This document shows, piece after piece, positions 2,260 to 57,716 of a DNA stretch of 64,000 bases. A program made the translations under genes and the position numbers. The notes beneath the pieces are model-generated. The model saw only the letters and a program-made list of their open reading frames with translations, was not told the DNA's origin and searched no databases. Each line of letters starts with the position of its first letter. Position 1 is the stretch's first letter. Source of the DNA: Candidatus Tayloriibacteriota bacterium (GTDB taxonomy: Bacteria > Patescibacteriota > Minisyncoccia > Phycocordibacterales > PALSA-1337); the NCBI GenBank assembly GCA_003151615.1, contig PLXZ01000004.1, positions 173,285 to 237,284 of the forward strand, in the 5' to 3' direction.

Positions 2260-2276
2260 AAAACACAACAAGCAAA

Positions 2277-26837: not shown

Positions 26838-28457
26838 ATGAAAAAGAAGCAAGTAAATGAAAAACCATTAGAAGACATAAAATACGCCGCCAGTTATATC
26901 AGAGTGTCGACCCAAGACCAGCTCAACGGGCTTTCAATTGAGGTTCAAGAAAAACTGTGCCAACGAAGAGCCGAAGAAGCAGGGTACAAAGTATCTGAAG
27001 TCCTTGACGACGGAGGTATTAGCGGACACAACGACAATCGCCCAGGATTGCACCGCTTGAAAGAATTGATTACGACAAAAAAGATAACGGCTATAGTCGC
27101 TCTATCGTCCGAACGCCTTTTCCGCAACACCCGCTCGCATCTCGACTTTATGGAGTGCGTCTTTACTTACGGTGTTCATCTCCTTTACGTCAATGGGGCA
27201 ACACCTGAAAACAACGCAAGTTCAAGGATGCAGGACACAGTTCTTGCAAGTATGAATCAGTTTTATAGAGATCAAATATCTGACAAAGTGAAAGGTGTCC
27301 TCTATGAAAAGGCCAAAATGGGCTATTACCCCTCTCGACCTCCAGCAGGATATATGAATGTTCCAAACCCAGACAAGAATGCAGAACGCATGGCGCAAAA
27401 GCTCGTAGTGCCAGACCCAAACACAGCTCCATTCATCAAAGAAATGTTTACGCTCTACGCCACAGGAAATTTCAACGTCTACGACCTTTGCGACATTATG
27501 TACGAAAAGGGCTTGCGAAGCAGAAAGGATGGCAAAATATCGCCAAGTAGACTTCACGATATGCTGAGAAGCCGTTTTTACATCGGTGAGCTTGTATGGG
27601 GGCCAATCAGCAACATAGAGGGGAAACACGAGCCTATCATTGATGAAGCGGCCTTTAATCAAGTGCAAATGATTTTAACAGCACGCAATCACCACGCCTG
27701 TCGGCGGCGGAAATACCAATGGCTTTTAAACGGCTATCTCTACTGCTACAAGCACGACAACCGTTATACGGCCGAATGGCACACAATCGGAAATAGACGC
27801 ATTGCATATTACCATTGCGCCAACAAAAGCGGTTGCGGCAAGTATTCCGAACAAGTAGACCTAGAAGCTAAAGTTGCCGAAAAATTCAAGGACTTGGAGT
27901 TTAGTCCTGCGTTTATTAAAGAGGTGATCGCCGAAGCAAAGGCGACATTCAACGAACAGCGAAAGGGCTACGACAAAAAGAAACAAGGCCTCATCAATCA
28001 GCGTACCGCTTTCGACCGACGGCGCAAGGTTATGGAAGACAAACTTTTCGACGGCGTAATCGGCGATGACGACTTCAAAAAGAACCGAGCCGAAGTTATG
28101 GCTGAAATACAACGGATTGAGGTGAAGCTATCGGACTTGGAAAAAAGCAGGGAGGTCAGAGTTGATGAAGCGGAGCAGATACTTCGTTTTACGAAGAATA
28201 TTTACGACGCATATCAAAAGGCATCGCCAGATCTCAAGCGGCACTATTTAGGCTTCTTTTGGTCACGCTTTGAGGTAAGTGATAAGGTTATAATAACGTC
28301 TACTCCCTCGCTTCTTTTCGCTGAACTTTTGAAGCTAAAACACGCTATTTTTAGAAGGTCAGAAACGCAAAAACACAAAGGACTGAATAGATCTAACAAA
28401 GTTATATTAGGAGGTCTACGGCTCCGCATGTTGAACGAAGTCAGAACCTGCATTTAG
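26838..28457 (+). CDS. Large serine recombinase (resolvase N-domain + recombinase domain + Zn-ribbon + coiled coil)
   Basis: AASYIRVSTQDQ (catalytic Ser), DGGISGHNDNRPGL, recombinase-domain block, C...C.C...CGK zinc ribbon. 539 aa. The last 30 nt equal repeat family C. Confidence 0.8.
   Translation: MKKKQVNEKPLEDIKYAASYIRVSTQDQLNGLSIEVQEKLCQRRAEEAGYKVSEVLDDGGISGHNDNRPGLHRLKELITTKKITAIVALSSERLFRNTRSHLDFMECVFTYGVHLLYVNGATPENNASSRMQDTVLASMNQFYRDQISDKVKGVLYEKAKMGYYPSRPPAGYMNVPNPDKNAERMAQKLVVPDPNTAPFIKEMFTLYATGNFNVYDLCDIMYEKGLRSRKDGKISPSRLHDMLRSRFYIGELVWGPISNIEGKHEPIIDEAAFNQVQMILTARNHHACRRRKYQWLLNGYLYCYKHDNRYTAEWHTIGNRRIAYYHCANKSGCGKYSEQVDLEAKVAEKFKDLEFSPAFIKEVIAEAKATFNEQRKGYDKKKQGLINQRTAFDRRRKVMEDKLFDGVIGDDDFKKNRAEVMAEIQRIEVKLSDLEKSREVRVDEAEQILRFTKNIYDAYQKASPDLKRHYLGFFWSRFEVSDKVIITSTPSLLFAELLKLKHAIFRRSETQKHKGLNRSNKVILGGLRLRMLNEVRTCI
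28421..28450. repeat. Family C repeat copy 3, coincident with the 3' end of the serine recombinase ORF
   Basis: gctccgcatgttgaacgaagtcagaacctg, 28/30 identical to 13166-13195. Confidence 0.6.
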
Positions 28458-28534: not shown

Positions 28535-29620
28535 ATGAGCAGTAATGCACTACTATCTTTATCAAAGACAAATAAAGTTTCGGAGCAAAATAAATTTGTG
28601 GCAGCTCAACCGATGCCAACAATTGATATTGAAAACAGGCGATATATCGGTAGCAAAGCAAAACTTTTAGATTGGATTTTTGATCACATAAAAAAAGAAT
28701 GCAAAGGAAATAGCTTCGCTGATATTTTTGCCGGTACAGGCGTTGTTTCCGCTAGGGCAGCGAGATCATTCAACAAGATTATCTTGAACGATATTTTGCA
28801 TTCGAACTTTGCTTCATATCAGGGATTTTTTGCGCAGGAAAAATATGATAGGGAAAAAATATTTAATTTTGTAGCACATTACAATTCTCTAGATGCTAAG
28901 GATATCAAGCATACATTTTTTTCAAAAGCATTTGGCGGAAAGTATTTCAATGTACCTGCGGCAAAACTTATAGGATACATTCGCGAAGACTTAAATAAGA
29001 GAAAATCAGAATTAAATAACAAAGAGTATCATATTTTGTTAACATCTTTGCTATATTCAGCTGACAAAATTGCGAATACCGTAGGACATTACGAGGCATA
29101 TTTTAAGAAAAGTATTTCAGATCGTAAATTTATTTTTAGACTAATCGAACCTTTGATCAAAGCGGGTAGAGTTTCTATTCACAGAGAGGACGCCAATGAA
29201 TTGGCAAAGAGCTTGAAAGCTGACATTGTTTACATTGATCCGCCTTATAATTCAAGACAGTATAGTCGCTTCTACCATGTCCTAGAAACACTCGCTCTTT
29301 GGGACAACCCCAAGCTTTTTGGTGTTGCACTTAAGAGGCCAGAGGAGAATATGAGCGAATATTGCAGAAACAATGCGGTCAATGCATTCGCTGATCTAAT
29401 TGGTAAACTAAATGCTAAGTATATTGTTGTTTCCTACAATAATACCTATAACTCAAAAAGCTCATCGTCGAGAAATAAGATCGAGCTTGAAGATATAAAG
29501 AGCATTTTGACCAGTAAGGGTAAGACAAAGATTTTCAAAAAAAGTCACCAATTCTTTAACGCAGGTAAGACAGACTTCAACGATCATCAGGAATGGCTTT
29601 TTATCACGGAAGTATTATGA
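28535..29620 (+). CDS. DNA N6-adenine methyltransferase, D12/Dam class (first of two)
   Basis: RYIGSKAKLLDWI (D12 class motif I) and VYIDPPYNSRQY (DPPY catalytic motif). Confidence 0.75.
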   Translation: MSSNALLSLSKTNKVSEQNKFVAAQPMPTIDIENRRYIGSKAKLLDWIFDHIKKECKGNSFADIFAGTGVVSARAARSFNKIILNDILHSNFASYQGFFAQEKYDREKIFNFVAHYNSLDAKDIKHTFFSKAFGGKYFNVPAAKLIGYIREDLNKRKSELNNKEYHILLTSLLYSADKIANTVGHYEAYFKKSISDRKFIFRLIEPLIKAGRVSIHREDANELAKSLKADIVYIDPPYNSRQYSRFYHVLETLALWDNPKLFGVALKRPEENMSEYCRNNAVNAFADLIGKLNAKYIVVSYNNTYNSKSSSSRNKIELEDIKSILTSKGKTKIFKKSHQFFNAGKTDFNDHQEWLFITEVL

Positions 29621-30525
29621 AATCAGACACATCGATTAAAAGATCACCGTTTTTTTATGTCGGTGATAAGTTCAAACTAATAAAAGAGATAAAGCAATAT
29701 TTTCCAGAGAAAATAGATTCCTTTGCCGAACCTTTTTTGGGTGGAGGGAGTGTTTTTTTAAATGTGGATGCGAAAAAGCATTTTGTTAATGATATTGATA
29801 TTAATGTTATAAATCTTCACAAGTATTTAGCTAACTCCTCAAAAAAAGAAAAGGAGTTCTTCGGAAAAATTAAGAAAATCGTGCAAAGGTATAATCTCTC
29901 CCGATCATTTTTTGAGGACGTAGTCCCTCTTTCTTTGAGAAAAACATGGCTGAAGACATATTATGCCCACTTCAACAGAGACGGCTATAACAAAATGAAG
30001 AGTGAGTACAACAAGGTAAAAAAAGATACTCTAATTTTGTATCTGTTGCTCATATACGGTTTCAATAGGATGCTGAGGTTCAATAAGAAAGGCGAATTTA
30101 ATATTCCTGTTGGAAACGTTGATTTTAATCGGAATGTCGTGAATGCGCTTCATGATTATTTTGAAGCTATGAAAAGCAAAGATGTTGTTTTTTCTAGCAA
30201 GGATTTTAAGAAATTTATTTTAGACCTAAAGCTAAATAAAAATGACTTTGTGTATGTTGATCCACCATATTTAATCTCTGCAAGTGAGTACAACAAGCTT
30301 TGGAATGAAGATTTAGATCGAGAACTAATGAGTACTTTGGATATGTTGGATAAAAAAGACATAAGATTCGCTCTCTCCAATGTCACGGCATACAATGGTA
30401 AAAAGAACGAAAAATTGATATCTTGGATGAGTAAATACAAGGTTCATCCAATAAAGAGTAATTACATCAGCTATCACAACAATAAGAAAAAGCAAATAAA
30501 CGAAGTCCTGATCACAAATTATTAA
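29593..30525 (+). CDS. DNA N6-adenine methyltransferase, D12/Dam class (second)
   Basis: FFYVGDKFKLIKEI... and VYVDPPYLISASEY. Overlaps the first MTase by 28 nt. True start may be M at 29617. Confidence 0.7.
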   Translation: MAFYHGSIMKSDTSIKRSPFFYVGDKFKLIKEIKQYFPEKIDSFAEPFLGGGSVFLNVDAKKHFVNDIDINVINLHKYLANSSKKEKEFFGKIKKIVQRYNLSRSFFEDVVPLSLRKTWLKTYYAHFNRDGYNKMKSEYNKVKKDTLILYLLLIYGFNRMLRFNKKGEFNIPVGNVDFNRNVVNALHDYFEAMKSKDVVFSSKDFKKFILDLKLNKNDFVYVDPPYLISASEYNKLWNEDLDRELMSTLDMLDKKDIRFALSNVTAYNGKKNEKLISWMSKYKVHPIKSNYISYHNNKKKQINEVLITNY

Positions 30526-30526
30526 C

Positions 30527-32128
30527 ATGCCCACCTCACGAAACAACGAATATAAACCATTACTTTTTACGACGACTGTCAGAAATCCAAGTCGCCTAAA
30601 AGCGTTGTTGAGTGTACTTCACAAATTTAATAGCCAAGAGTTAACGAATGATCTCTCTGTGAAGATAATGGGTGAGTTAATTAGGTATGGATTATACAGA
30701 CCAACAAGAGCCGTGTCGTCAGAAATCGAAAAGAAGTGGGGATCAAAAAGAATAACAGATAACTCAACAATCGGTCTTCAGCTCCTTGCAGATGATGAGG
30801 TCGCCACGTTGCTCGACAAGAACCCACAAGCTCATAAAGAGGCAGGTTTTGATCGAGGTTGGCCATCACGATTTGCGACAGTGTTCGATTTAGCTAAGGA
30901 ACTTGGGTTTGTTTTTTATACAGTTGGTGAGAAGATTGAATTTTCCGAGATCGGGTCAAAGCTTGCAAACTCGATTGAAATAAAGATTCAAGAGGATAAT
31001 ATTTTAGTAGAAGATACTCACCCTGAATTTGAGCAGCAAGCTTTTCTGCATGCACTTGCCAAGTATCAAAGAAAAAATCCTTTCGTACGTGTTTTGAACG
31101 ATAATGCCCCGCTTATACTTTTGCTTGAGGTTATTCAGAAGATAAATGCTGACAACAATTTTAATGCATCTGGTATTTCTAAATTGGAGCTCCCGCTTTT
31201 TATTTACTGGAAGAATAATGATTCCGAAGCGCTTTATCAGAGAATAAAGAAGCTTCGTAATGATTTTGGCTATTCACCTACATGGGAAACGATATGTGAT
31301 ATTTGCAGAAACGAAATAATGCAGGGTGAGGACTCCACTAGGAAAGATAAATCAATCATGCTCGAGTATCCCGATGAATATATAAGGAAGATGCGTCTTA
31401 CCGGACTCATCTCTTTGAGAGGTGGTGGTAGATTCGTTGATATAAATAAAAATGAGCAAGAGAAGGTAGATTATATCCTCAAGGTATATTCAACTTATAA
31501 TAAATATCCCACCGAGCGAGAATATTTTAATTATGTCTCTACGATCGACGAGAACCTTGTCACTGTCGGCGCCAAGGCTGTAACGATTGAAGAGAAAGAT
31601 CGTTATCTTGAGAAATGGGTCAATGAATATTCATGGCCCAAAATTCGCGAGGAAATGACGAATCTTGCTGATAAGAAGCTTACCAAAGACGACGTTCTGA
31701 AATATCTTTCGAATCCAATAAGATTGGAGTTTCTTACTGCAATAGCAATAAAATCAAAGTTTCCGAATATTAAGGTCATCGCAAACTATCCCGTAGATGA
31801 CGAGGGTTTGCCTACATCGACAGCAGCCGGAGTCAACGATATGGGCGACATTGAGTGTTACGAAAATCATAATGGTGTTCTCGTTGAGGTGACAATGTCC
31901 GAGGGCCGATCGCAGACTATGATGGAAGTGTGGCCGATCACGCGTCATCTTGAGAAATTCAGCAAGAAGACAGAGGACGCCATGTGTTATTTTGTTGCCC
32001 CAAGCCTGTACACCGATTCAATAAGGCAAATAGACTATTCAAAACAACAGTACAATATTTCGATTGTACCAAAGACAATAAAAGATTTTTTGAATCACCT
32101 AGAAAGTACTCAAACACTCTATGTTTAA
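30527..32128 (+). CDS. Putative restriction endonuclease, large (533 aa), likely Type IIS (AlwI/MlyI/PleI-family-like) partner of the two MTases
   Basis: Start 2 nt after the second MTase stop. The two-Dam-like-MTase-plus-large-REase arrangement is characteristic of Type IIS systems. C-terminal D..E.YE...VLVEVT resembles a PD-(D/E)xK core. Family assignment is inference. Confidence 0.45.
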   Translation: MPTSRNNEYKPLLFTTTVRNPSRLKALLSVLHKFNSQELTNDLSVKIMGELIRYGLYRPTRAVSSEIEKKWGSKRITDNSTIGLQLLADDEVATLLDKNPQAHKEAGFDRGWPSRFATVFDLAKELGFVFYTVGEKIEFSEIGSKLANSIEIKIQEDNILVEDTHPEFEQQAFLHALAKYQRKNPFVRVLNDNAPLILLLEVIQKINADNNFNASGISKLELPLFIYWKNNDSEALYQRIKKLRNDFGYSPTWETICDICRNEIMQGEDSTRKDKSIMLEYPDEYIRKMRLTGLISLRGGGRFVDINKNEQEKVDYILKVYSTYNKYPTEREYFNYVSTIDENLVTVGAKAVTIEEKDRYLEKWVNEYSWPKIREEMTNLADKKLTKDDVLKYLSNPIRLEFLTAIAIKSKFPNIKVIANYPVDDEGLPTSTAAGVNDMGDIECYENHNGVLVEVTMSEGRSQTMMEVWPITRHLEKFSKKTEDAMCYFVAPSLYTDSIRQIDYSKQQYNISIVPKTIKDFLNHLESTQTLYV

Positions 32129-34047: not shown

Positions 34048-37000
34048 ATGTCCATAAATGTTAAAATAGCTTTTCTCATGAACGACGAAACGCCCAATGC
34101 AATACCACCAGATAAATTTAAGTTTGACGATCCCCGTCAGAATACAATTTTCGATTACCTGAAAAGACTGGTCGGTGAGGGTGCGGCATCTTTCTATAAA
34201 GATGCTTGCCGTCACATGGTGACAAAGCCTCCTTTTGAGACTACGACGCATATCATTAGCCATCTTTTGCGCGAAGTCGAAAGCGCCCTTCGAGCCGTAC
34301 TCGAAGGGATAACTGAGCCAGCCCCTACCGGAGAAGGTAGGCACAAAAAGCAGATACAAATAATCCTGAAAGCCCTTGATATTCCTGAAAATGAACTGGT
34401 TGGTAGGGCTTGGTTGGAGTTGCCGGGAGATAACGGTTTCCAAGACACGGCTCACAGAAATAATCTTGATGCCGCGCGTCCAATGGACAACGATTTCAAG
34501 ACCAGATGGGATAATTTCAATTTGATTCTGCTATCCGTCCTAGGAAAATTCGAGACTCAATATACGAAAGTTTTTGTGACACTCAATGAGCTTGCGAAAA
34601 AGACAATGCCCGTGCAAGCAGACGTCAATACTTTAAAATTGCACATCCCAAATAATCGAGCGGCTCACGAACATTTTTTCAAAAAGATAGATTCACCCCT
34701 GTGGTTACCATTACTTAATGACGCGGGATTTTTTGCATCACCGCCCGCGCCCGAAAAAGATATAGAGAATAACAGTGTCCGCTACCCAGCTTGGCCGGTG
34801 CTTATCTATCTCGGAAAAGTCGCCACGGCATCACCAGATTTGGTGACTCAGATTCTGTCAGGTATTCCAGAAACAGAAAATGGTACTGTGAAAGCTGGGT
34901 TGATCGAGATAACGACCCTTTTGCCAAAAGAAAAGAAACTGGAGCTGATTCTGTGTGTAAAAAAATGGATGAATGCTGACAATCAATTCTTCAGCTCAAT
35001 AAAATCCATCGAACTCATAAAATCATTAGCAACTGATAAGGAGATAGATTCAGCCTTTACGTTGTCACGTGAGCTCCTGGAGTTTATTCCTGATCCTACA
35101 GTTCCCAAACCGATCGAGGGAACTGACTGGATACCTTCACGTGAGCCAAGGACAATTATAGATAAATGGCAGTACGCAAGGTTTCTACAAGATGATTTTC
35201 CGGCCATTGCACAGCAAGATCCTTTAAAGGCTCTTGGGCTTCTTTGTGACATGCTTACACGGTTCTACGATCTGAGCCATACCGGAAAGGCGGAGGAACC
35301 TCTTGAGGATTACTCTTACATCAGCCGACCGTTGATTGAGACATCGGATCATCTCCATCGCGATGATATCGATGATTCTTTGATGGAAGCGATACTGAGC
35401 GTATCAATCAATGGGATCAAAGAGGACTCTGCTTTTCTGGAAAAAAGTATCTCCAAACTGAAAAAACAAAAGTGGCCTGTGTTCACTCGCATTATCCTGT
35501 ACCTCTTGAGCAAGCATCCGATCATAAATCCGGACCTCACGATTAACTATGTATTAACTACTGAGTTTTTGGATAATCAAAACTATGGCCATGAGTACCC
35601 CTTACTGCTGAATAATGGCTTCAATTTACTTAGTTCTGAGCAGAAGAAAGTGATATTTGACCTGATTGAAAAAGCAGAGCTGATAAAAGAGCGCATTGAA
35701 ACGCGACCGGACCCAGTATCTGCGGAAAACGCAGACAAGATAGTGAAGGGCTGGCAACGTGACAAACTATCAATCATCGCAACTCATCTTGAGGGTGATC
35801 GAAAGAAGGGTTATGAAACACTGGTCGCTGATATGGGCAAAGCAGAGGATGAAGAAGTTCGACACAAGCGTTCGGGAGTTTTCGTTGGACCTGTAAGTGA
35901 TGTGGATGCTGAACGGATAAGCAAGATGACTCTTAATGAATTTATTGGGCTTCTGAAAACATGGCAACCAAAGAAGGGTGATTTCGGTTTCGGTCCCAGC
36001 AAGGAAGGACTTGGACGGGAGATCAGTGCCGCAGTCAAAAAAGAACCTGCTCAATTTTCCACTTACGCTATATCTCTCGTCGGTTTTGATCCAACATACG
36101 TCCGTAATTATCTTCAGGCATTTTCTGAAATCACACAGAATAATATTCTGTTCGAATGGAAAGCGATAGTCGATCTGGGCGTGTGGATATCAGAGCAACC
36201 TCGTGAGATTCCAGGAAGAATAGTTGGCCACGTATTCGACGAGGATGTTGATTGGGGTTGGACGAGGAGAGCTCTGATAACTTTGATTTCAAATGGCCTG
36301 AACAATAACTCGATTCCGTATGAGCTACACGAAAAAGTGTGGAAAATTATTGAAATCCTTACCGACGATCCTAATCCGACGTCGGAGCAAGAGCTGACCA
36401 GAGAAGGAACACTGACAGAAGATGCCTATGGACTCACGATCAATACCGTCCGTGGTGAGGCAATGACCGCTGTCGTTGAGTACGGATTATGGATCACTCG
36501 GTTGATAGATAAGTTGCCTGAAAACAAGAAGCCGACTCTAAAAGGGTTTGCCCTCCTGCCAAAGATCCAGTCCATTCTCGAAAAGCATTTAACAAACGAT
36601 CCGTCCATAGCTGTCCGCGCCGTATATGGACGCTATTTCCCATGGATTCTATACCTAGGAAACGATTGGACTCTCGCACACGTCAAAGATATTTTCCCGC
36701 CTGGTGGATTTAATACCCCTCTGTATGACGCGGCATGGGAAACGTATGTCACCTATGTCTCCGTCTACAATGATGTATTCGAGGTCCTCCGCGATCAATA
36801 CATGGAAGCGGTAAAAAACATCGGGACAGCAACAAAAAAGAAAAGCCATATAGATAGGGACAATAGTCTTGTTGGGCACCTCATGACCATGTTCTGGAGG
36901 GGTAAATTGGCCATCGGGGACATTCTATTTACCACCTTCTGGAAAACAGCGGATGCTGATACGAGAGGTCATGCAATGGATTTCATCGGTCGCAGTCTAC

Positions 37001-37494
37001 ACAACATGACAGAGCCACTAGAACCTGAGGAAACTGGACTATTGAAATCTCTTTGGAAATATAGAATCGAGGAAGCGGAAGCGGCGCAAGACAGAACGTC
37101 TTATCAAAAAGAGATGGACGCTTTTGGATGGTGGTTCGAAAGTGGAAAGTTTGATGAAGATTGGGCGATCAAAGAGTTTCTGAGGAGTCTCGATATAGCT
37201 AAAGGTATGAGATCAGATTACTTCGTCATCGACCGCTTGGTCATTCTGGTTGAGAGCAGACCGCTGGAGGCTCTTCAGATTCTCGAAAAGTTAATCCAGT
37301 CCGACAGACCCCAGTGGTTTATATTCGGAAATGAAAGCGATATCAGAACGATATTCACTCGAGCTCTTCATTCTCCCGAGGCAACAGCACAGAAAATGGC
37401 AACGGACCTGATCAACAGACTCGTCGCCAAGGGTTATAGTTCTTATAGTGATTTACTGTTACCTCCTCCAATTAGCCAGATTGTTATGGACTAA
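34048..37494 (+). CDS. Large hypothetical protein (1148 aa), mostly alpha-helical/W-rich, no recognised catalytic motif
   Basis: Single uninterrupted ORF. Composition suggests helical repeats. Sits between the R-M/NUDIX genes and a convergent hypothetical gene. Confidence 0.55.
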   Translation: MSINVKIAFLMNDETPNAIPPDKFKFDDPRQNTIFDYLKRLVGEGAASFYKDACRHMVTKPPFETTTHIISHLLREVESALRAVLEGITEPAPTGEGRHKKQIQIILKALDIPENELVGRAWLELPGDNGFQDTAHRNNLDAARPMDNDFKTRWDNFNLILLSVLGKFETQYTKVFVTLNELAKKTMPVQADVNTLKLHIPNNRAAHEHFFKKIDSPLWLPLLNDAGFFASPPAPEKDIENNSVRYPAWPVLIYLGKVATASPDLVTQILSGIPETENGTVKAGLIEITTLLPKEKKLELILCVKKWMNADNQFFSSIKSIELIKSLATDKEIDSAFTLSRELLEFIPDPTVPKPIEGTDWIPSREPRTIIDKWQYARFLQDDFPAIAQQDPLKALGLLCDMLTRFYDLSHTGKAEEPLEDYSYISRPLIETSDHLHRDDIDDSLMEAILSVSINGIKEDSAFLEKSISKLKKQKWPVFTRIILYLLSKHPIINPDLTINYVLTTEFLDNQNYGHEYPLLLNNGFNLLSSEQKKVIFDLIEKAELIKERIETRPDPVSAENADKIVKGWQRDKLSIIATHLEGDRKKGYETLVADMGKAEDEEVRHKRSGVFVGPVSDVDAERISKMTLNEFIGLLKTWQPKKGDFGFGPSKEGLGREISAAVKKEPAQFSTYAISLVGFDPTYVRNYLQAFSEITQNNILFEWKAIVDLGVWISEQPREIPGRIVGHVFDEDVDWGWTRRALITLISNGLNNNSIPYELHEKVWKIIEILTDDPNPTSEQELTREGTLTEDAYGLTINTVRGEAMTAVVEYGLWITRLIDKLPENKKPTLKGFALLPKIQSILEKHLTNDPSIAVRAVYGRYFPWILYLGNDWTLAHVKDIFPPGGFNTPLYDAAWETYVTYVSVYNDVFEVLRDQYMEAVKNIGTATKKKSHIDRDNSLVGHLMTMFWRGKLAIGDILFTTFWKTADADTRGHAMDFIGRSLHNMTEPLEPEETGLLKSLWKYRIEEAEAAQDRTSYQKEMDAFGWWFESGKFDEDWAIKEFLRSLDIAKGMRSDYFVIDRLVILVESRPLEALQILEKLIQSDRPQWFIFGNESDIRTIFTRALHSPEATAQKMATDLINRLVAKGYSSYSDLLLPPPISQIVMD

Positions 37495-42668: not shown

Positions 42669-42997
42669 AATCATATAATCCGAATGATTCAGGAAAAAAG
42701 TTTCTGGTTGATGAATGTCAAAAAATAAGTATAACAACCTATATTCGACAAGCTAAAGCAAAGCTCAAGAATGCACTACTCATGAGCACACTTGAGATGG
42801 ATAGCAAGGCCATAGAATTGACCCCCTCAAAGACCTCATTCCATGGCGAAAGATATTGGTTCAAATGCCCTAAATGCAGTAAGCGCGCCGGCACATTATT
42901 CGTACATCCACTGAATCATGAAATTGGATGTAGAAAATGCCTTAACCTTGAGTACAGAAGCAGAAGATATAAAGGCATGATTGAGGAGTCATTTTAA
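42665..42997 (+). CDS. Hypothetical zinc-ribbon protein
   Basis: CPKCSKR...CRKC, 110 aa. Start overlaps the upstream stop (ATGA). Confidence 0.4.
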   Translation: MKSYNPNDSGKKFLVDECQKISITTYIRQAKAKLKNALLMSTLEMDSKAIELTPSKTSFHGERYWFKCPKCSKRAGTLFVHPLNHEIGCRKCLNLEYRSRRYKGMIEESF

Positions 42998-43056
42998 GCC
43001 CGTAGACTTATCTTGTATTAGCGGTATTGTATGTGTTAAGACAACTAACAAAAATA

Positions 43057-44759
43057 AAATGAAAAACGAAGCGCAAATAATAAATTACGATGTGTATCTC
43101 CGTAAATCGAGTGAGGCGGAAGATAAACAGATTCAGTCCATCGATGACCAGAGGCGAGAACTGAATGAATATGCAAATAAGAATAATCTTCACATAGTAG
43201 GTGAGTTTGAGGAATCGCAGAGTGCACATCATCCAGGGCGGCCGATTTTTAACAAAGTCATGAAAAGGATCGAGAAGGGAATATCGACTGGATTACTAGT
43301 TTGGCACGCCAACAGAACCTCGAGAAATCCAGTTGATAGTGGAACAATAATAAACCTTATCGATGAAAAGAAACTGATACATGTTAGGACGCCGTCACAT
43401 ATTTACGGTAATACTTCCACGGAGAAAATGATGCTTGCACTTGAGTGTATGATGGCTAAAAAAGATTCGGACGATAAAAGCGAAGCGGTAAAGAGAGGTC
43501 TACGCGGCAGATATAGAAAGGGACTTCCAAATGGCGTGGCACCTATCGGATTCCTAAATGATATGTCAGTTGAAAAAGGTAATCGGGGATGGCTTGTGGA
43601 CGCCGAAAAGCTCCCTCTTATTGGCCAACTTCTTCAGCTCTGTCTTACCGGAAGATATTCAACCAGAGATCTCCTAAATATCGCAAATGAGGATATGGGA
43701 CTCCGCACCCAACTCCGCAAAAAACAGGGAGGTAAAAAACTTGTGCTCTCATATCTGACAGATGTCATCCTTAAGGGAGAGGTATACGCCGGATTTTTCT
43801 ACACCGCTGATGGTGAGAGACATGATTTGGCTGAAAGCATCCCAAGACTAATTACAGAAGAACAACACTGGCAAATTAGAAAGATATTAGGTGATAGAAA
43901 CAGGCCTCGAGCGTCAAAAAATAAAATGACCTTCGCGTATACGGGACCGACAAAGTGTGGAGGGTGCGAGGGATCAATCACTGCTGAACACAAGTACCAG
44001 CTTATTTGCGCCTGTAAATTAAAGTTTGTTTATCTTAATAAGACACATTGTCCGGGGTGCGGAGTTTCAATAAAAAACATAGAAAAGCCCACCTATCTTC
44101 ATTACATTTATTACCACTGCACTAGGAAGAAAGATTTACTTTGCCGTGAGGGTAGTGTGCAGGAATTATACATAGATAATCATCTAGCAACATACTTCAA
44201 AGAAAATTTCAAAATCTCGAAAGCGCTCCATGAATGGTGTATCGAAAATATCGAAGCCCTTGATGCTGGCGATGCTAAAAACGGATCCGAAAAGAAAATA
44301 TCTTTGGAAGCGACCATCGCTAAAAAGCAAAATGAATACAAAGAGCTTGTTCTCATGAAGACCCGCGGACTTATCAGTGATAGCGATTTTGTAGAGCTTA
44401 AGACGAGCCAAAAAGCCGAAATTGAGGCCTTACAGCGGACTTTGAGCAATACGCCAAATAAGGACCAAACATCAAGCGTTAAAGCGCGTAGAGCCTTTAC
44501 GCTCGCATTAGGAATTGAAGAAGTATTCAAGAACGGAACACCTCAAGAGAAAAAAGAGGTGTTATCAGAGATTGGTTCGAACCTAACTTTAAAAGACAAA
44601 AAGCTCAATGTTTACAACACAGGAATCTATGAACGGATCATAAACGGACTACTTAGGGCGAAAGCAGAAAATCCTCGGTTCGAACCTGAATATATCTTAG
44701 ATACATCAAGTCAGAATAAAGATTTTATGCTCGCACGACCAACTCTGCTCCGGGAGTAG
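43057..44759 (+). CDS. Large serine recombinase (second copy, distinct sequence)
   Basis: YDVYLRKSSEAEDKQIQSIDDQRRELNEY (resolvase catalytic domain with Ser), recombinase domain, CGGCEGS...C zinc ribbon. Stop codon lies inside the 3' end of the adjacent tRNA gene. Confidence 0.75.
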
Positions 44760-49459: not shown

Positions 49460-52400
49460 ATGCCATCGATTGAATCAGTGCCGGAAAGTCAGATCAAGCA
49501 CGTTGAGAAGGTGCCCGATTTTGACGCGCTTCAAACCGAAAAGGAAAAATTGTTTCGTGAGGCCGAAGAGGAGTCGATGCAATTTTCTGAAGATGAAAAA
49601 ATGGACGCTGTTTCCACGGTTTCTAATTATTCCGTAAAAGATGGATTTGAGCTTGCCCGAAGGCTTGGTTTGGATGGCAATCGTACGTTCCATGCCATGA
49701 CCTATGGAACCGTGGTCTATAAAAATAAGCCATTTTTTACGGCTTTCGATAATTATCTTGCCGCAAACGAAGGATATGCCGATAACAGCAATCATGAGAA
49801 ATCTGTCATGAGTGATGGGGTTGGGAGAATTCAGCGTGGGCTCGACAGCCAACTCGATGACGTCAAATTGTATATTGATCATTCAAAGAGACAGACTGGT
49901 TCACTCGGACCGAAAATCGATGAATATTACTCACATTTCATCCGCAATCGTCGCGTAAAAAGTCCCGAATTGCCGAACGACGGTCGCACACAAATCGAAC
50001 GGGTCGCCGAAGAGCATCTTCTGAGCGCGCAGGCGATACTCGAAGAAAGTTACTACACTGGGCCGGTGAGGGAATTTTTAGGTCTCGATGAAAAAGTTCT
50101 TGGTTGGGAAGAAAATGGAATACATGAAGGATATGGAGATAAAGGCGCGCAATTCAAACGAGATCTTCAGGTTGATGATTTATGGAAATTGAGAGGAAAT
50201 GTCATAGACAGACAATCGCTGGATGCCCTTTTCGAAACTAAAATAATGGGTGGATTGGACAAGAACGACCCGCGGCTTGAAAGTGTTTTAAAAAATGCCC
50301 GATACGCTCCTTCAAAAGTGGTCTTTGAAGAGCGCAAGCGTGGTGCCGAAAAGGGCTTGATAAAGCAAATTGAAGATTCCATGGTTGCACGCGGATTTAA
50401 AAAGGATGATTTTGAAATTACCTTGAATCAAGAAAAAGGGGAATATGAAGTGGTGAAGAAGGAAAAAGAGCAAGAGGAGGAAACAATAGAAGAAGTAGAG
50501 AACAAAGAAAATATGAAGCTGGTAAAAGAAATACCACGCGATATTAGTCTCAGTAAAGTAGATGCGAATTATCAAACTTACAGGACAATGGAAGACGAGG
50601 AAGATCCTCGATTCAATCAATTTCGTATAGATCAAGGTTCTTTTGGAGATTCCGGAGTGATCATGATTGATGGCGAACTGCATACACTATATAAGAGCCA
50701 TTACCTGTCTTCATTTTTCGTACGACCCGATGGGTCAAAATCCCGTATGTATTATCATGCTCATTCACCCCGCGAGGTTAATGGTAAGCTCGGATTTGAT
50801 TTTGCTCCAGATGCAACAATGCAGTCGTATCGAATGATGTTTGATAGTGAAGTTTTCGGAGATAAATATTGGCAACCTCGAGGTTATGATGCCGTCGAAC
50901 ATGAAGGCAAGCTATTTTACGTTGCGGAAGAAAAGGCAAGTGATTCAAGTCATAGTCATGCCTTGTTTAAGGGCGCATCTTGTTTGCGTGATTTTGGTCC
51001 GGGAGTGGCGATAGATGATTTTTTTGTTGGTCAGAAGGATATAGCTTGTGTTACTCGATCGTTAAGTGATAATAAGAAGAGAGAGGTTCAATTTATTACT
51101 CATAATGAGAAACTCGGACCTTATGACAACATAGAACTTTGTAAAAATTCAAAGGATGAATTGATTTTCTATGCCAAGAAAGGTGACGAACATTTTGTAT
51201 ACGTGGATGGAGTTGATGAGAAGATCGAATACAGTGGAGGTGCTATAAGTCAGATCTTATTGTGTAACGAGGAAATTTATTTACTTTGTAATGATGCTGA
51301 GAATGAAGAATTGGGTACTTCTGAATCATACCTTGGTGCAGGCATACATTTGGTAAAAGGGAAAAATTCCATATCTAATTTTATGGAAATTAATGGTGGT
51401 ATCTTTTATCTAAGATATTTTAAGGGGCGCGGTTTCCATGGGTATCCCGATAAAGTGAAGCAGTTTAGTTGGCAAAAAAACGGCGATGATCGTAGTTCAG
51501 ATTATTACCTAAAGAAAATAAATCTAACGGGAGTATATAACCAAGCTGTTGGTTTTCATGATACGTTATTTATTACTGACGATAAGAAAATTTTATCTCT
51601 CAAATATGGCGAAGAAAAATTTAAAGAAGTAACTTTTGACGGATACGTTAGACTGTCTCAGTCAGGCGGAAAGCTTTTTATACTTGAATCTTTGGAGGAT
51701 AAGGAGCGTGTTTGGGAATATTCTGAGGCAGGCGAAATTGAATTAAAAGAAAACGAAAAGCGTGATCTCGACCTCGCAAATGCTGTCGCCAAAGAAGACC
51801 TTGACACGATAAAAGAGTATTTTGCAAAATATTATCCGGAAGAGGCGGAAAAATCTCCGGCGGAACAGATTAAAGCAGGTTTGAAAGGAATGTTGGAACA
51901 GTCGGGCCGTTTTGTATCCGCAGTCAATCAAACGATCAAAGAAATGCCTGAATTGTTCATGGATACGTTTCGAGCGAAGGATGACAAGCCGACGGAGTAT
52001 CTCATGACCCAAATGTTCAATTATATGTTTCCGGAAACGCGGGCGAACAAGGAAAAAGCCCTGAAACAGGAAAACAAGAACAATCCGAATCGCCCGAATA
52101 TTTTTGGCGGAAGTAGAAAAGACGCCGCAGTTAATTATGATCCGGGTGTCGACCGCTTGGCTTCGGTTGATGAATCGGGTTATTACGAGATGATTAATGC
52201 GAACCGGGAAGTGCTGAAACTGCGCGAGCCATTGCCGGATTCGACTTTTATCGTCAGCGGCATATTCGGCAATCATACTGAAGGCGGCTGGGCTAAAGTC
52301 AACGTACCTATTTCACAGGAAATACAGGAACCGGCAAAAGAGACAACGTTTGAATTTGTCGATGAAAAATCAAGCCAGACCATCAATCTCCCGAGAATTG

Positions 52401-53635
52401 CCGGTTCTAAAATTATCACCGAACGTTTGAAAGGCGTGAATGCCAAGGATGCCGAAGTTCCGGTCAAGGTCATCGAGGAAAACAACCTTGGCGAAGTGCG
52501 CGTCGATAAGGGCAAAGATGCAAGACGCCTGGCATATTCGCAGTCGTTCAGTGAGGTGCCAAAAACAATGGCGGAAATTACCGAGAAAGATTATGAAAAA
52601 TTCAAAAAAGATTTTGAACGGAGTTTTGGCGACGTCATGACAAAGCCGATCGGTGACCTGGGCGACGAGCTTGACGTATTTGTCCGTGGTTTGAGGGATA
52701 AAAGCCCCCGCGAACAGGTGATAGCAATTCAGGAATTTTGCTATGAGTATGGATATTATAATGTTGATAAGCAAGTTCGTGACACTGACAGTTTCGAGGA
52801 ACGCTTGAGCATCATGGAGGGACGCATGGAGGAACTCAAAGAAAAAGATCCGAAACTTGCGCGTAAACTTTATGCCGGTATCTGCACTGACTTTGCCACA
52901 TTGACGACTGCGCTTTTGCGTAAGGCGGGTTTTGTTTCGGGTATTTCAACCGGCTATGTGCCTGAATCGGGAAGTACTGTTATTAAAAGCGACCGCGCGC
53001 ATGCCGTTTCATATGTTCTTTGGCCAAATCCCGAAAACAAGGACCGGAAACCCGATATGATTATTGTGGACGGTACACCGTCATCCATGACGCCCAAAAT
53101 AGTCGAACAGGAAAAAATTGCAAAAGAAGTTCATGGTGAGTCGGGCATCAATGCCGAAAAAGAAATGGCGGAACTGGAACGAATTTTGAAGACTATGGAC
53201 AGCGAGACGATTAAAAAAATGGAAAATGGCGTCCTAGAAAAAACATTGAATCAAATTCTGTACGGAGTGAAGCAGTCGCATGTTGATGTCATGGAGCGCG
53301 TTTTGAATGCTTCGCGATACGCAGGTTTTGATATCATTGAGATGACCAGAGGGAACGTCCAGGACCAAATTGAATTTAGGAAGTTCCTTGAAGAGGAAAT
53401 CTACAAGGAAAAAGGCGCCACCCATGAAAACAGGGAACGACGCGGCGAGGAGCTCTTTGAACTTATGCTCGACTTCACTAAAAGGTTTGAAAAAGACAAA
53501 GACGTGAAAAATAAAGCGGAAGTATTTGATATTTTGGAGAAAGTCTTTGATGTATCGGAGAAATATCTTGATCCTATCGAAGCGAGGAGTGCGGCTGCAA
53601 TCGTGACTTATTTGAGGGCGAAGAAAATGAGATAA
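49460..53635 (+). CDS. Giant protein (1391 aa) with C-terminal transglutaminase-like cysteine-protease domain
   Basis: LYAGICTDFATLTTALLRKAGF (Cys), AHAVSYV (His), IIVDGTP (Asp) in transglutaminase-core spacing. Long acidic/coiled N-terminal region. Confidence 0.55.
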   Translation: MPSIESVPESQIKHVEKVPDFDALQTEKEKLFREAEEESMQFSEDEKMDAVSTVSNYSVKDGFELARRLGLDGNRTFHAMTYGTVVYKNKPFFTAFDNYLAANEGYADNSNHEKSVMSDGVGRIQRGLDSQLDDVKLYIDHSKRQTGSLGPKIDEYYSHFIRNRRVKSPELPNDGRTQIERVAEEHLLSAQAILEESYYTGPVREFLGLDEKVLGWEENGIHEGYGDKGAQFKRDLQVDDLWKLRGNVIDRQSLDALFETKIMGGLDKNDPRLESVLKNARYAPSKVVFEERKRGAEKGLIKQIEDSMVARGFKKDDFEITLNQEKGEYEVVKKEKEQEEETIEEVENKENMKLVKEIPRDISLSKVDANYQTYRTMEDEEDPRFNQFRIDQGSFGDSGVIMIDGELHTLYKSHYLSSFFVRPDGSKSRMYYHAHSPREVNGKLGFDFAPDATMQSYRMMFDSEVFGDKYWQPRGYDAVEHEGKLFYVAEEKASDSSHSHALFKGASCLRDFGPGVAIDDFFVGQKDIACVTRSLSDNKKREVQFITHNEKLGPYDNIELCKNSKDELIFYAKKGDEHFVYVDGVDEKIEYSGGAISQILLCNEEIYLLCNDAENEELGTSESYLGAGIHLVKGKNSISNFMEINGGIFYLRYFKGRGFHGYPDKVKQFSWQKNGDDRSSDYYLKKINLTGVYNQAVGFHDTLFITDDKKILSLKYGEEKFKEVTFDGYVRLSQSGGKLFILESLEDKERVWEYSEAGEIELKENEKRDLDLANAVAKEDLDTIKEYFAKYYPEEAEKSPAEQIKAGLKGMLEQSGRFVSAVNQTIKEMPELFMDTFRAKDDKPTEYLMTQMFNYMFPETRANKEKALKQENKNNPNRPNIFGGSRKDAAVNYDPGVDRLASVDESGYYEMINANREVLKLREPLPDSTFIVSGIFGNHTEGGWAKVNVPISQEIQEPAKETTFEFVDEKSSQTINLPRIAGSKIITERLKGVNAKDAEVPVKVIEENNLGEVRVDKGKDARRLAYSQSFSEVPKTMAEITEKDYEKFKKDFERSFGDVMTKPIGDLGDELDVFVRGLRDKSPREQVIAIQEFCYEYGYYNVDKQVRDTDSFEERLSIMEGRMEELKEKDPKLARKLYAGICTDFATLTTALLRKAGFVSGISTGYVPESGSTVIKSDRAHAVSYVLWPNPENKDRKPDMIIVDGTPSSMTPKIVEQEKIAKEVHGESGINAEKEMAELERILKTMDSETIKKMENGVLEKTLNQILYGVKQSHVDVMERVLNASRYAGFDIIEMTRGNVQDQIEFRKFLEEEIYKEKGATHENRERRGEELFELMLDFTKRFEKDKDVKNKAEVFDILEKVFDVSEKYLDPIEARSAAAIVTYLRAKKMR

Positions 53636-53736
53636 TAAAAAGGTCCTACAAATTCCACTCGATTTTACAAATGGCGAGAAGACTTGTCCAAAGTTTTATT
53701 TTTGATTATTTATAATAAATGAAATTATAAGGTATA

Positions 53737-54786
53737 GTGTATGAATCTATGGAAAACATGCCCGAATTTAGAATGGTCGGCACCGATGACAAGGAAGCCA
53801 AGGCTGAAGCCAAGAAAGAGTCCGAAGATTATTTGGAGCGTCATGTAAGCTCGCTTTCCCCGGAAGAAAGGCAATTTTTTGAGAAATATGAAATTCCAAA
53901 AACGGAAGAGCAGAAATCCCTCATAGATTTTGCCAATGAGGAAACCAACAGATTACGCCAGGAAGGCGGATTGCCGCCCTATGTCGTGCCGACTGAAAAT
54001 TATCATATTCTCCCCACTGAAAAATATCGTGAAATGAACGGGCATGAAACCTCCGGGATAACAAGCTATATGAGCCAATCAGTCTGTTTCGATGCCGAAA
54101 AATTAGGTAAAAACATTCTTATGTTCGGTTCCACGGCTTTCCATGAGACTTTGCACCTCAAGGGACACACCTCGTTTGAAGTTGAAATCGAAGAAGATCC
54201 AAAGGAAAAAACGGAACATAGAATGAAATCAAATTATCGTGTGGGAGTTTCCGTAATTTCGTCCCAAAAAAAGATTCGCGATGAAGGGGAACAGCACCGT
54301 CATTTCAATGGTCTCAATGAGGCGATCATCGCGACTGAAGAAAAGAAATTACTTCCGAAACTTCTGGAACGTCCCGAAATTAAGAGTCGAGAGGAACTGC
54401 CGACATCTATTGAAAGAACGGCTATTCTTGAAAAATTTTGCGAGGCGGAAAAAATCTCCGTGGAGGAAATAATGGATTTTAAAATAGATGAAGAGGAAAA
54501 AGTCAGAAGCTATGTCGTTTTCCCTTATCTCCCCCAAAGAAAGGTTCTTTTGTATGTTTGCGCGGAAATCGCAAAGGATTTTCCGGAACAATATGGCGAT
54601 GCAGAGGCTGTGCGCAAAGAATTTACCAAAGCCCATTTTACCGGCCGGCTTTTGCCGCTGGCCCGTCTTACGGAAAGTGCGTTTGGAAAAGGAAGTTTTC
54701 GCATCCTTGGCGATATTGGAATTGATGAAAATAGTGGAATGTTGGGGTTAGAGGCGATGCAAAAGCTGAGAAATAAAAAATCTTAG
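53737..54786 (+). CDS. Hypothetical protein with HExxH zinc-metallopeptidase-like motif
   Basis: MFGSTAFHETLHLKGH. Immediately downstream of the transglutaminase giant gene. Confidence 0.4.
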   Translation: MYESMENMPEFRMVGTDDKEAKAEAKKESEDYLERHVSSLSPEERQFFEKYEIPKTEEQKSLIDFANEETNRLRQEGGLPPYVVPTENYHILPTEKYREMNGHETSGITSYMSQSVCFDAEKLGKNILMFGSTAFHETLHLKGHTSFEVEIEEDPKEKTEHRMKSNYRVGVSVISSQKKIRDEGEQHRHFNGLNEAIIATEEKKLLPKLLERPEIKSREELPTSIERTAILEKFCEAEKISVEEIMDFKIDEEEKVRSYVVFPYLPQRKVLLYVCAEIAKDFPEQYGDAEAVRKEFTKAHFTGRLLPLARLTESAFGKGSFRILGDIGIDENSGMLGLEAMQKLRNKKS

Positions 54787-54833: not shown

Positions 54834-56444
54834 TTACAAATCCCTGAACGTCTCTATTTTCGCGCCAATTTTATTGAGGCGTTCGGCAAGATCTTCGTAG
54901 CCGCGGTTGATGTTGTAGACGTTGCGCAAAACGGAAACGCCTTCGGCGGCGAGCATGGCGATCAGGATGATGACGGATGGGCGGAGGGCAGGAGGGCAGA
55001 CAACTTCGGTCGCCTTTAATTTCGTGGGGCCGGTGACATAAAAACGGTGCGGATCGGCGAGGATGGTTTCGGCGCGGAGTTTGTCCAGTTCCTTGTAATA
55101 AATAGCGCGCTCTTCGTAGGTCCAGTCGTGGATAAAGGTCTGACCTTCGGCCTGTGTTCCGATGACGGCGAAAAAAGGAAGATTGTCCATATTAATGCCG
55201 GGATATGGTTGCGCGTGAATTTTTTCTTCGAGCGCGACAAGTTTCGACGGTTTTGTGCGGATGTCGACGAGATTTGTTTCCCCATTTTCAGCCTTGTATC
55301 GCTTGACGATGGAATATTTGAAGCCCATTTTTTCGAGTTTCAAAAGTTCAAGTTCCAGAAAATCAATCGGACAGCGCTCGACGGTGATTTCCGATTTCGT
55401 GACGATGGCTGCGGCGAGGAGTGACATGGCTTCAATAGGATCCTCGGACAGGAAATATTCGACTGGCATGTTTATATCCGCGACGCCGTGGACCGTTAGT
55501 CGTGATGTTCCGATACCTTCGATTTTGACGCCGAGCTTTTGTAAGTAAAAACAAACGTCCTGTACCTGATAATTGGCAGATGCGAATTTTATCACCGTTG
55601 TTCCGGGTACGCCCGCTGCGGCAATGAGAACCGTTTCGGTGACGGTGTCGCCGGCTTCATAGAGGATGATTTCGTTTGGTCGCGAATCGCCGAAAATTTT
55701 CCCGAACGCATTTGCGCGGGAAGTTGATCTCGAGACTTCGTAATATTTCGAAGTCGTTTCAATGCCGATGCCGAGCTTTTCCAGTGCATAGAAGTAAGGC
55801 TTTACCGTCCGCGAACCGAGACGGCAACCGCCAGCCTGCGGAAATTTGAATGAATTGAGCTGATGGACAAGTCCGCCGATCATGATGATGCAACTTCGCG
55901 TTTTAGCCGCGGATTCATAATTGATTTTGTTGAGAGTGAATTTTGCAGGAGGTTTAATTTCGAGGTCAAAACGGTCCTTGCCCGCGCCGCTTTTGTCGGT
56001 GCTTTCTTTCCATGAAATTTTAACGCCGATAGATTCGAGAACTTCGATGAGGCGGTTTACTTCTTCGATTCGCGGCACATTTCGCACGGTCGTCACTCCT
56101 TTGTTCAAAAGGGAAGCGCAGAGAATACCGACGGCACCGTTTTTAGAGGTGCGCACCGCGATTCTGCCGGAAAGCTTCCGTCCGCCGGTGATTCTGAAAT
56201 TGACCGTGCCTCCGCGCGCGATCGAAACAATCTCATGATCGAGGGCCGCGCTGATTTTCGATAGTGTTTCCGTCGACAGGTTCTGCTCGCCCTTTTCGAT
56301 GCGCGCCACGACCGACTGCGTCGTGCCGATTTTTTTCGCCAACGCCTCCTGGCTCATGCCGCGGTCCTCCCGCAGCCGCGTGATCAGATTGCCGATGTGA
56401 GTCAGTGCCTTGTCTGCGGTATGCGCGGTGTCTGTCATGTTCAT
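54834..56444 (-). CDS. murA: UDP-N-acetylglucosamine 1-carboxyvinyltransferase fused to an N-terminal XRE-type HTH domain
   Basis: HTH: LITRLREDRGMSQEALAKKIGTTQSVVARIEKGEQNLSTETL. MurA/EPSP-synthase fold blocks follow (RITGGRKLSGRIAVRTSKNGAVGILCASLL..., C-terminal LRPSVIILIAMLAAEGVSVLRNVYNINRGYE). Start may be 56528. Confidence 0.65.
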   Translation of the reverse strand: MNMTDTAHTADKALTHIGNLITRLREDRGMSQEALAKKIGTTQSVVARIEKGEQNLSTETLSKISAALDHEIVSIARGGTVNFRITGGRKLSGRIAVRTSKNGAVGILCASLLNKGVTTVRNVPRIEEVNRLIEVLESIGVKISWKESTDKSGAGKDRFDLEIKPPAKFTLNKINYESAAKTRSCIIMIGGLVHQLNSFKFPQAGGCRLGSRTVKPYFYALEKLGIGIETTSKYYEVSRSTSRANAFGKIFGDSRPNEIILYEAGDTVTETVLIAAAGVPGTTVIKFASANYQVQDVCFYLQKLGVKIEGIGTSRLTVHGVADINMPVEYFLSEDPIEAMSLLAAAIVTKSEITVERCPIDFLELELLKLEKMGFKYSIVKRYKAENGETNLVDIRTKPSKLVALEEKIHAQPYPGINMDNLPFFAVIGTQAEGQTFIHDWTYEERAIYYKELDKLRAETILADPHRFYVTGPTKLKATEVVCPPALRPSVIILIAMLAAEGVSVLRNVYNINRGYEDLAERLNKIGAKIETFRDL

Positions 56445-56591
56445 GTTGGATAATATAGCATATACGCTATATATGTAAAATTTCAAAATTGTGGATAACT
56501 GGCGGTGGAATCTCTCAATAGGCGGCATTTTTTATTCTTTCTTTAGAACATTTTGAATGTTTCTCTATCGCCGCTTTGCTATGGTTGGCGG

Positions 56592-57005
56592 ATGAAACGA
56601 AAAAGTGAATTAAAACAAATTAACTCTCTGATTGCCTATTATTTTGGCCTTCCGAAAGGCCATCGTATTTCGCATCCAAACATAAAAATGTTTATAGATG
56701 ATGCCGTTCGCATCTCCCGACGGGCGATCAAGCATATTGTCGAGGAAAGAAGAGACGATACATACACCATTGCCCAAATACAGGGTATGTTTACAAAAAT
56801 TTTAGAGACAGTTCACAATCCCGATTTTTCAATCTCCAACAACAATAAAAAATATCCCGGCAGTTTTATGACGGTAAAATCATATCAAAAATTAAATAAT
56901 ATGCTCGTGGTCGTTCAAAACAAGAACTCTTCCGGAGTCGCAATCATTACGGTCTTTTTCAGACAATACCGGCATTACAAAAAAATGAAAGCTAAATCTC
57001 AATAA
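56592..57005 (+). CDS. Hypothetical protein
   Basis: ORF 56553..57005. Internal Met MKRKSELKQ preferred. Confidence 0.35.
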   Translation: MKRKSELKQINSLIAYYFGLPKGHRISHPNIKMFIDDAVRISRRAIKHIVEERRDDTYTIAQIQGMFTKILETVHNPDFSISNNNKKYPGSFMTVKSYQKLNNMLVVVQNKNSSGVAIITVFFRQYRHYKKMKAKSQ

Positions 57006-57213
57006 TCTGTTTCTGGAAGGTCGGCATCCCGTTTCCAGGTATCCTTCATCTATCATCTACCGAAGTAGAAGTCCGCAGTAGTCGCCTTTCTGCTGTCAGA
57101 AACAGGTTATTAGTATCTAGCTTTTCAAGCCTCACTGGGTTTAAGTATAAAGGAGAATTTTCGAAAGTCAAGAAATTGTTGAGCATACGCTTTTTATTTG
57201 TTACACTTTTGCC

Positions 57214-57601
57214 ATGAATCCGGAATTTCCAAAAGAAAGCATGTTCGGCGATGCGCATACACTTACGATGGGAGGCGTTGAGTATGATGTCTACAAATTA
57301 ATTGATATTGCCAAACACATGGAAACTGTAGAAATCAAAGTGGCCGATATTAAAAATCAGGTGTTGGAAGAACAATGTTGGACTGACAGCGATGCAAATA
57401 AATTTTCCCGAATGGATTGACCACATCAACAAAACAAAAAATGCCGACTATAGTTATCCGATTCTCATGCTCAAAAATGAAGTAATTGACGGAATGCATC
57501 GACTCATTAAGGCGATTACGGACAAGGTTGATACTATACTCGCAAAAGTCATGGACGAACTGCCGAAAGAGGTGATTTATATTTCGAAAAAGCAGGGGTG
57601 A
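57214..57601 (+). pseudogene. Possible frameshifted gene (two overlapping ORFs 57214..57420 and 57392..57601) encoding a ParB/Srx-like DGxHR protein
   Basis: The two ORFs overlap by 29 nt in different frames. The second contains IDGMHRLIKA, reminiscent of the ParB-like nuclease motif. Could be a frameshift, a sequencing error or genuine overlap. Confidence 0.3.
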
Positions 57602-57615
57602 AAAAACTCTTTAAA

Positions 57616-57716
57616 CATCACCATCGTGCAAATGCGAATGCGAAAATTCGAACCTAGGTTTTAAGCCATATTTTGGAAATCAAAATACACTTTTTCGCAT
57701 TTGCACGATGGTGATG
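57616..57716. repeat. Perfect 23-bp inverted repeat (catcaccatcgtgcaaatgcgaa ... ttcgcatttgcacgatggtgatg) with ~55-nt loop
   Basis: Read directly. Lies between the frameshifted gene and mreB. Confidence 0.6.

Follow-up and report, generated by a model that had tools for sequence, protein, structure and literature searches.

The transglutaminase-like superfamily was divided in 1999 into seven families, six of which are covered by the Pfam entries PF01841 and PF04473 (PMC10318531), and a conserved cysteine protease of the candidate phyla radiation (CPR), CPR-C4, has been found to be structurally related to the vasohibins, which are transglutaminase-like proteases (PMC9108980). Here we describe two adjacent genes in a stretch of 64,000 nucleotides (the window) from contig PLXZ01000004.1 of Candidatus Tayloriibacteriota bacterium: one for a 1391-residue giant protein with a predicted transglutaminase-like core of Cys-His-Asp order near its C-terminus, and the next for a protein with an HExxH motif (the HExxH protein). 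An earlier sequence-only reading had suggested that the two might act together as a system for host interaction or cell-surface remodelling. We consider it likely, instead, that they are two independent accessory genes lying side by side by chance, the first coding for a transglutaminase-like giant protein with an intact triad and the second for a putative hydrolase of the gluzincin type.

The transglutaminase-like core that the sequence-only reading had proposed lies above the curated Pfam thresholds. At full length the giant protein passes them narrowly, with 23.1 bits for Transglut_core (cutoff 23) and 22.1 bits for DUF553 (cutoff 20.5), and the isolated domain (residues 1060–1225) scores 29.1 and 25.5 bits, respectively, against the same cutoffs. 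In a set of 61 mutually diverse core domains from relatives (<55% identical), 60 match Transglut_core (counted at E ≤ 0.01; best E 3.2e-11) and 54 match DUF553, and the Transglut_core cutoff is also passed by all five distant full-length relatives. No segment of the giant protein is better conserved than the core (78% identity in close relatives, 37% in distant ones), and the top PDB sequence match of the family profile (E about 0.005–0.009) is 3ISR, entitled ‘transglutaminase-like enzymes, putative cysteine protease’, which aligns at AGvCxDFA...LLR through its own segment AGVCRDFA. As judged from these profiles, the core is a divergent member of the known transglutaminase-like superfamily.

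The sequence-only reading had proposed to judge the assignment by the conservation of the triad in homologs, and the triad proved to be conserved. Across representatives of clusters at 50% identity (about 150), Cys1142 is present in 153 of 153 sequences, His1181 in 153 of 153 and Asp1204 in 147 of 152 (the remainder being four Glu and one Ala), while the positions around them are variable, the column of R1179, for example, holding N, D, H, R, Q and E. In the aligned sequences this conservation is well above chance expectation. It also bears on the proposal that the domain, like inactive members of the superfamily of the Rad4/XPC type, lacks catalysis and serves for binding or as a scaffold, the giant protein then being structural, for example cytoskeletal or part of an envelope-associated scaffold. 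Catalytically inactive families do exist in the superfamily (PMC10318531), the bulk of the giant protein is non-enzymatic, with large helical regions, and its transglutaminase-like activity is a prediction; loss of triad residues is, however, characteristic of inactive homologs, whereas here the Cys, His and Asp are kept in a setting that varies freely, and we therefore regard a purely structural role as improbable.

Structure prediction added little to this part of the analysis. An AlphaFold2 model of residues 736–1391, built on an alignment of eight close sequences, is of low confidence (pLDDT 49.4, pTM 0.29), and the order of its elements, a helix carrying the Cys followed by strands carrying the His and then the Asp, is as expected for a papain-like fold and carries little weight. 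A Foldseek search with the same C-terminal model returned nothing, an uninformative result of the kind expected for a model with a pLDDT of 49.

Both open reading frames (ORFs), and all the motifs that the sequence-only reading had quoted, GICTDFATLTTALLRKAGF, AHAVSYV, IVDGT and FHETLH, are present (Table 1). The database protein identical to the giant protein comes from a metagenome contig of 562,931 bp (ENA ERZ27254241). For the HExxH gene, the true start is probably the ATG, which gives a protein beginning MENMPEF, instead of the GTG, since the database call (P0010) and the alignment of homologs agree on it. Both proteins are acidic (pI 5.1 for the giant protein and 5.3 for the HExxH protein) and have hydrophilic N-termini; judged by hydropathy, neither has a signal peptide or transmembrane segment, the maximum 19-residue Kyte–Doolittle mean being 0.97–0.98. 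No paralog of either gene was found within the window.

Table 1. Coordinates of the two genes, their domains and motifs, and genes of the low-GC stretch upstream (positions are those of the window).
Feature	Position	Strand	Basis or remark
Gene for the 1391-aa giant protein	49460..53635	+	ORF with ATG start; identical database protein P0001
Conserved N-terminal domain, residues 1–340	49460..50479	+	Motifs YYSHFIRNRR, ESYYTGP, ARYAPS; no Pfam or PDB match
Hypervariable middle, residues 341–735, strand-rich	50480..51664	+	Lowest GC (37%, GC3 30%)
Conserved C-terminal module, residues 736–1391	51665..53632	+	Exhaustive HMMER; secondary structure from low-confidence model
Predicted transglutaminase-like (papain-fold) catalytic core, residues 1060–1225	52637..53134	+	Pfam matches; triad Cys1142/His1181/Asp1204
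Segment encoding GICTDFATLTTALLRKAGF	52877-52933	+	In giant gene
Cys1142 codon	52883-52885	+	Within GICTDFATLTTALLRKAGF
His1181 codon	53000-53002	+	AHAVSYV
Asp1204 codon	53069-53071	+	IVDGT
Spacer between the two genes	53636..53748	+	101–113 nt; promoter-like TTTATA-18-TATAGT just upstream of HExxH gene
Gene for the HExxH protein	53737..54786	+	ORF of 349 aa with GTG start at 53737; probable true start ATG 53749, giving 345 aa
HETLH of FHETLH	54142-54156	+	
Invariant Glu195 codon	54319-54321	+	
Two large serine recombinases	26838-28457 and 42981-44759		Low-GC stretch
Two D12-class adenine methyltransferases	28535-30525		Low-GC stretch
AlwI-type restriction endonuclease	30527-32128		Low-GC stretch
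1148-aa protein without Pfam match	34048-37494		Low-GC stretch

The giant protein belongs to a family without annotation that comprises 284 representatives, each standing for a cluster at 50% identity, recovered at E ≤ 1e-3 when the C-terminal 656 residues were searched exhaustively with HMMER (165 at E ≤ 1e-30); in nearly all of them the module sits at the C-terminus of a protein of 1200–2400 residues. Reference genomes rarely carry the family: the 185,579 species representatives contain three loci, under the labels Saccharibacteria, Parcubacteria and ‘uncultured bacterium’. The labels on related records agree with the CPR-type organism (Patescibacteria) that the sequence-only reading had assumed. 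The same reading had described the more than 1000 residues upstream of the core as acidic, coiled-coil-like sequence with no signal peptide, of which the acidity and the missing signal peptide stand; the region is not mere coiled coil and consists of a conserved N-terminal domain, a variable middle and conserved helical and beta regions. A profile of residues 1–340 matches the N-termini of 82 family representatives, and the alignment of this region has invariant columns. In the middle, by comparison, residues 341–545 share 16% identity among nine close relatives, as against 78% in the core, and the middle-region profile finds only 17 relatives; the search for internal repeats there gave only a weak recurring GG(K)-L/I-F-Y/I-L/V motif near residues 484, 646 and 737 (best hhalign E 9e-4, probability 23%). 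The C-terminal module runs from a helical region through a Gly-rich linker, a beta-rich region (about 901–1030) and a helical bundle to the transglutaminase-like core and a helical tail, the helical and beta-rich regions of residues 736–1040 and the tail of about 180 residues (1216–1391) being conserved. Regions outside the catalytic core gave no match in Pfam, NCBIfam or the PDB. Secondary profile matches had raised the possibility of an internal duplication linking the N-terminal domain to the tail, but neither BLASTP nor hhalign gave it significance.

Some relatives of the giant protein (P0090, P0092 and P0093) are split or truncated, through assembly frameshifts or gene decay. The tblastn segments of P0090 lie in different frames (457-3113 of locus L011), and P0093, a protein of 527 residues on a 205-kb contig, stops just before the catalytic Cys.

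From the established chemistry of the superfamily we infer how the giant protein would act: Asp1204 would orient His1181, His1181 would activate Cys1142, and Cys1142 would form a thioester with a protein substrate by attacking one of its carbonyls, peptide or isopeptide/amide. Resolution of the thioester by water would give a protease, amidase or deamidase outcome, and resolution by an amine a cross-linking one; proteolysis, deamidation/amidase activity and cross-linking may each apply to the giant protein. The conserved N-terminal domain, together with the C-terminal helical and beta regions, would serve as a constant scaffold, and the hypervariable middle, as the part that differs between lineages, is plausibly a target-binding module and a natural candidate for target selection. 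The protein is most likely cytoplasmic, because it has no export signal, and would be so by default unless exported by an unrecognized route. In a more ambitious form of this scheme, the giant protein would be a Patescibacteria-specific modular enzyme whose constant catalytic module is aimed by the variable middle at lineage-specific targets, for instance host-cell or own-envelope proteins that would be cross-linked or cleaved during episymbiotic attachment after unrecognized export, and the HExxH protein would, separately, represent an unsolved zinc hydrolase architecture. We think this unlikely.

The HExxH protein has homologs in 79 clusters, nearly all of 330–360 residues, and the few that are named carry the labels Patescibacteria group, Nomurabacteria or ‘bacterium’. 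In 38 aligned sequences, reaching down to 23% identity, the invariant residues are H136, E137, H140, F190, E195, G303, G317 and R322, so that the HExxH motif pointed out in the sequence-only reading is constant across the family, along with a Glu downstream of it. The AlphaFold model built on this alignment is of high confidence (pLDDT 94.2, pTM 0.92). It places HExxH in a helix (residues 127–142) preceded by strands 89–92, 107–110 and 115–119 and followed by a beta hairpin (145–169), and Glu195, within G-L-x-E-A-I, in helix 191–210, an order of elements that is, in the model, that of the gluzincins/zincins. By inference His136, His140 and Glu195 would be the metal ligands and Glu137 the general base, and residue conservation and model together make a zinc metallohydrolase of the gluzincin type the most likely identity of the protein.

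Searches for relatives of known structure or function gave little. Foldseek with the HExxH model found no significant match (best E 0.19 in the PDB, with a TM score of 0.14, and 0.13 in BFVD), and the high-probability local matches in BFVD were exclusively to phage entries named ‘Peptidase’ or ‘Zn-dependent protease’, the ‘Peptidase’ match covering 52 columns at an rmsd of 1.3 Å (probability 0.93, E 0.89). The overall architecture, as modelled, is without a solved counterpart. Sequence searches of Pfam, NCBIfam and the PDB with the whole protein and with core profiles identified no peptidase, only scattered sub-threshold matches to zincin families in Pfam. We therefore regard the HExxH protein as a putative metallohydrolase, gluzincin-like, whose family is undescribed, and place it in none of the known peptidase families. 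A PDB match of the C-terminal helices of the family to Integrator subunit 3 (E 0.002) was judged a chance helical similarity and set aside. As a separate observation, eight of the 38 members match the 25-residue Pfam HIND motif, the Hub1-interaction motif of Snu66 (best E 1.5e-6), at residues 68–81 in the conserved helix FANEETNRL..GL.PY; the match is recurrent, yet probably a chance likeness of a short helix.

To examine the neighbourhoods of the two families we used six independent loci of the giant family, those of P0004 (L001/L002/L010), P0007 (L003-5/L009), P0003 (L012), P0006 (L015), P0090 (L011) and P0094 (L017), and four of the HExxH family, those of P0015 (L006), P0066 (L007), P0046 (L008) and P0012 (L013/L014). 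By tblastn, no relative of the HExxH protein is encoded in any of the six, and no relative of the giant protein in any of the four. The genes downstream in the giant loci are small unrelated ORFs or code for an NYN/Peptidase_S51 protein, a phosphohexomutase-like protein or NusG, and the neighbours of the HExxH gene are unrelated genes in all four loci. Two candidates for conserved synteny were rejected, the gene after P0006 in L015, which codes for the phosphohexomutase-like protein, and a fragment before P0012 in L013/L014, which has no match to the C-terminus of the giant protein. Because the HExxH family is separate and is never a neighbour of the giant gene in the other loci examined, the two genes are most probably not a system, and the synteny check speaks against that part of the sequence-only reading. 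In one HExxH locus (L006, 7793-9026) a gene for a 65-residue XRE-type helix-turn-helix (HTH) protein ends 10 nt before the HExxH gene, an arrangement reminiscent of the ImmR/ImmA-type pairs of repressor and metalloprotease; it is absent from the other three HExxH loci and from the window.

These results make a functional pair very unlikely, one in which a giant cysteine protease or transglutaminase and a metallopeptidase would work together in host interaction or cell-surface remodelling, with one of them, for example, processing or activating the other. The arrangement in the window is what first suggests such a pair: the genes have a common strand, no terminator-like site is called in the short spacer between them, both depart equally from their flanks in GC content and in GC at third codon positions (GC3), and both proteins have conserved catalytic motifs. 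Against it, the genes are adjacent at none of the ten independent loci, six of one family and four of the other. A consensus scan also placed a promoter-like site immediately before the HExxH gene (weak evidence), and the families differ greatly in size and neighbourhood. In addition, a surface or host-interacting location finds no support in two proteins without signal peptide or transmembrane segment.

Base composition places both genes apart from their surroundings. Their GC is 42–43% and their GC3 41–43%, compared with 51–55% and 56–66% in the flanking priA, def, fmt, HTH-murA and mreB, which gives both the appearance of accessory DNA within this genome. Further upstream, positions 20000-44800 form a low-GC stretch (37–44%) resembling an integrated mobile or accessory island with a restriction–modification (R-M) system (Table 1). 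It could be asked whether the two-gene block is a piece of a mobile element, of a phage remnant or of a defence island, and the giant protein an effector, for defence or as a toxin, whose variable region acts as a sensor. The GC below that of the flanking core genes, the layout of conserved ends and variable middle, the rare and patchy distribution in reference genomes and the presence, at about 20–44 kb of the window, of the island with its recombinases and R-M system are all compatible with this. However, neither protein has a match in PADLOC or PHROGs, neither family was found on IMG/VR viral contigs, and no direct or inverted repeats of the kind left as insertion scars flank the block; there is no adjacent integrase or recombinase, no NTPase or typical sensor or switch domain, and in other genomes the surrounding genes have ordinary housekeeping functions. 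A mobile or defence origin of the block thus appears doubtful at best.

Several observations weigh against our preferred reading of two independent enzyme genes, and they concern each of its parts. The two genes have the low GC in common (42–43% against flanks of 51–55%), as well as the strand, and may have been acquired jointly or be functionally linked in the lineage of this one genome. For the transglutaminase-like region there is no confident three-dimensional model (pLDDT 49), so the assignment of the fold has its whole basis in sequence profiles and the order of secondary-structure elements; moreover, the family profile recovers only its 284 matches and not the bulk of the classical superfamily, and the core is therefore divergent. 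As to the HExxH protein, it has no significant match to any zincin family or structure, and HExxH is, taken alone, a short motif.

Three other features of the window deserve mention. Immediately beyond the HExxH gene, 54834-56528 (− strand) codes for a 564-residue protein in which an XRE-type HTH_3 domain at the N-terminus is fused to an enolpyruvyl transferase of the MurA/EPSP-synthase fold, an unusual combination for a cell-wall enzyme. Between this murA gene and mreB, a short low-GC patch (56553-57700) contains a 150-residue ORF (37% GC, no Pfam match) and small ORFs, which suggests that accessory DNA is interspersed among the core genes of this genome. A 982-residue protein encoded at 3412-6360 (− strand), with YDG and HYR matches and weak peptidoglycan-binding matches, is likelier to be a surface or adhesion protein than the product of the giant gene.

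The genomes of Patescibacteria are tiny, and a gene of 4.2 kb is therefore a large investment; what underlies their lifestyle at the molecular level is mostly obscure. No description of either family turned up in searches of the literature. What is new here is the definition of the giant-protein family, with its intact predicted transglutaminase-like active site and its conserved ends around a variable middle, and of a separate small HExxH family, whose confidently predicted structure has no match among those solved. The two families offer concrete targets for biochemical and structural work, and there is no evidence of an unusual mechanism in either. The idea of a host-interaction system, which would otherwise have been misleading for annotation, is corrected.

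The HExxH protein would follow the thermolysin-like logic of the gluzincins: in the model, the HExxH helix comes after beta strands, and the long helix that follows carries the invariant Glu, whose segment G-L-x-E-A-I presumably resembles the N-E-A-I-S-D of thermolysin, a likeness that is a lead rather than a test. It differs from them in the 55-residue spacing from HExxH to the Glu, with an inserted beta hairpin, and in a conserved C-terminal helical domain (HFTGRLL...FGKGSFRILG, with the invariant R322) that has no counterpart. The giant protein shares with the transglutaminase-like superfamily (Transglut_core PF01841 and DUF553 PF04473, of the Peptidase_CA clan) the order Cys-His-Asp and the motifs AG-x-C-x-D-F-A ... 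LLR-x-x-G, H-A ... and D-G-T-P. Many bacterial members of the superfamily have a membrane anchor, which the giant protein lacks; in its family the core is found at the C-terminal end of multidomain proteins of 1200–2400 residues. CPR-C4 was not detected among the PDB sequence matches of the giant-family profiles. Like the giant family, it represents a papain/transglutaminase-related family of cysteine hydrolases of CPR bacteria without an assigned cellular role, but it is small and single-domain, with a non-canonical Cys-His-Leu(carbonyl) triad (PMC9108980), whereas the giant family is multidomain, with a canonical Cys-His-Asp triad. CPR-C4 is the nearest published CPR cysteine protease, yet it belongs to a different family.

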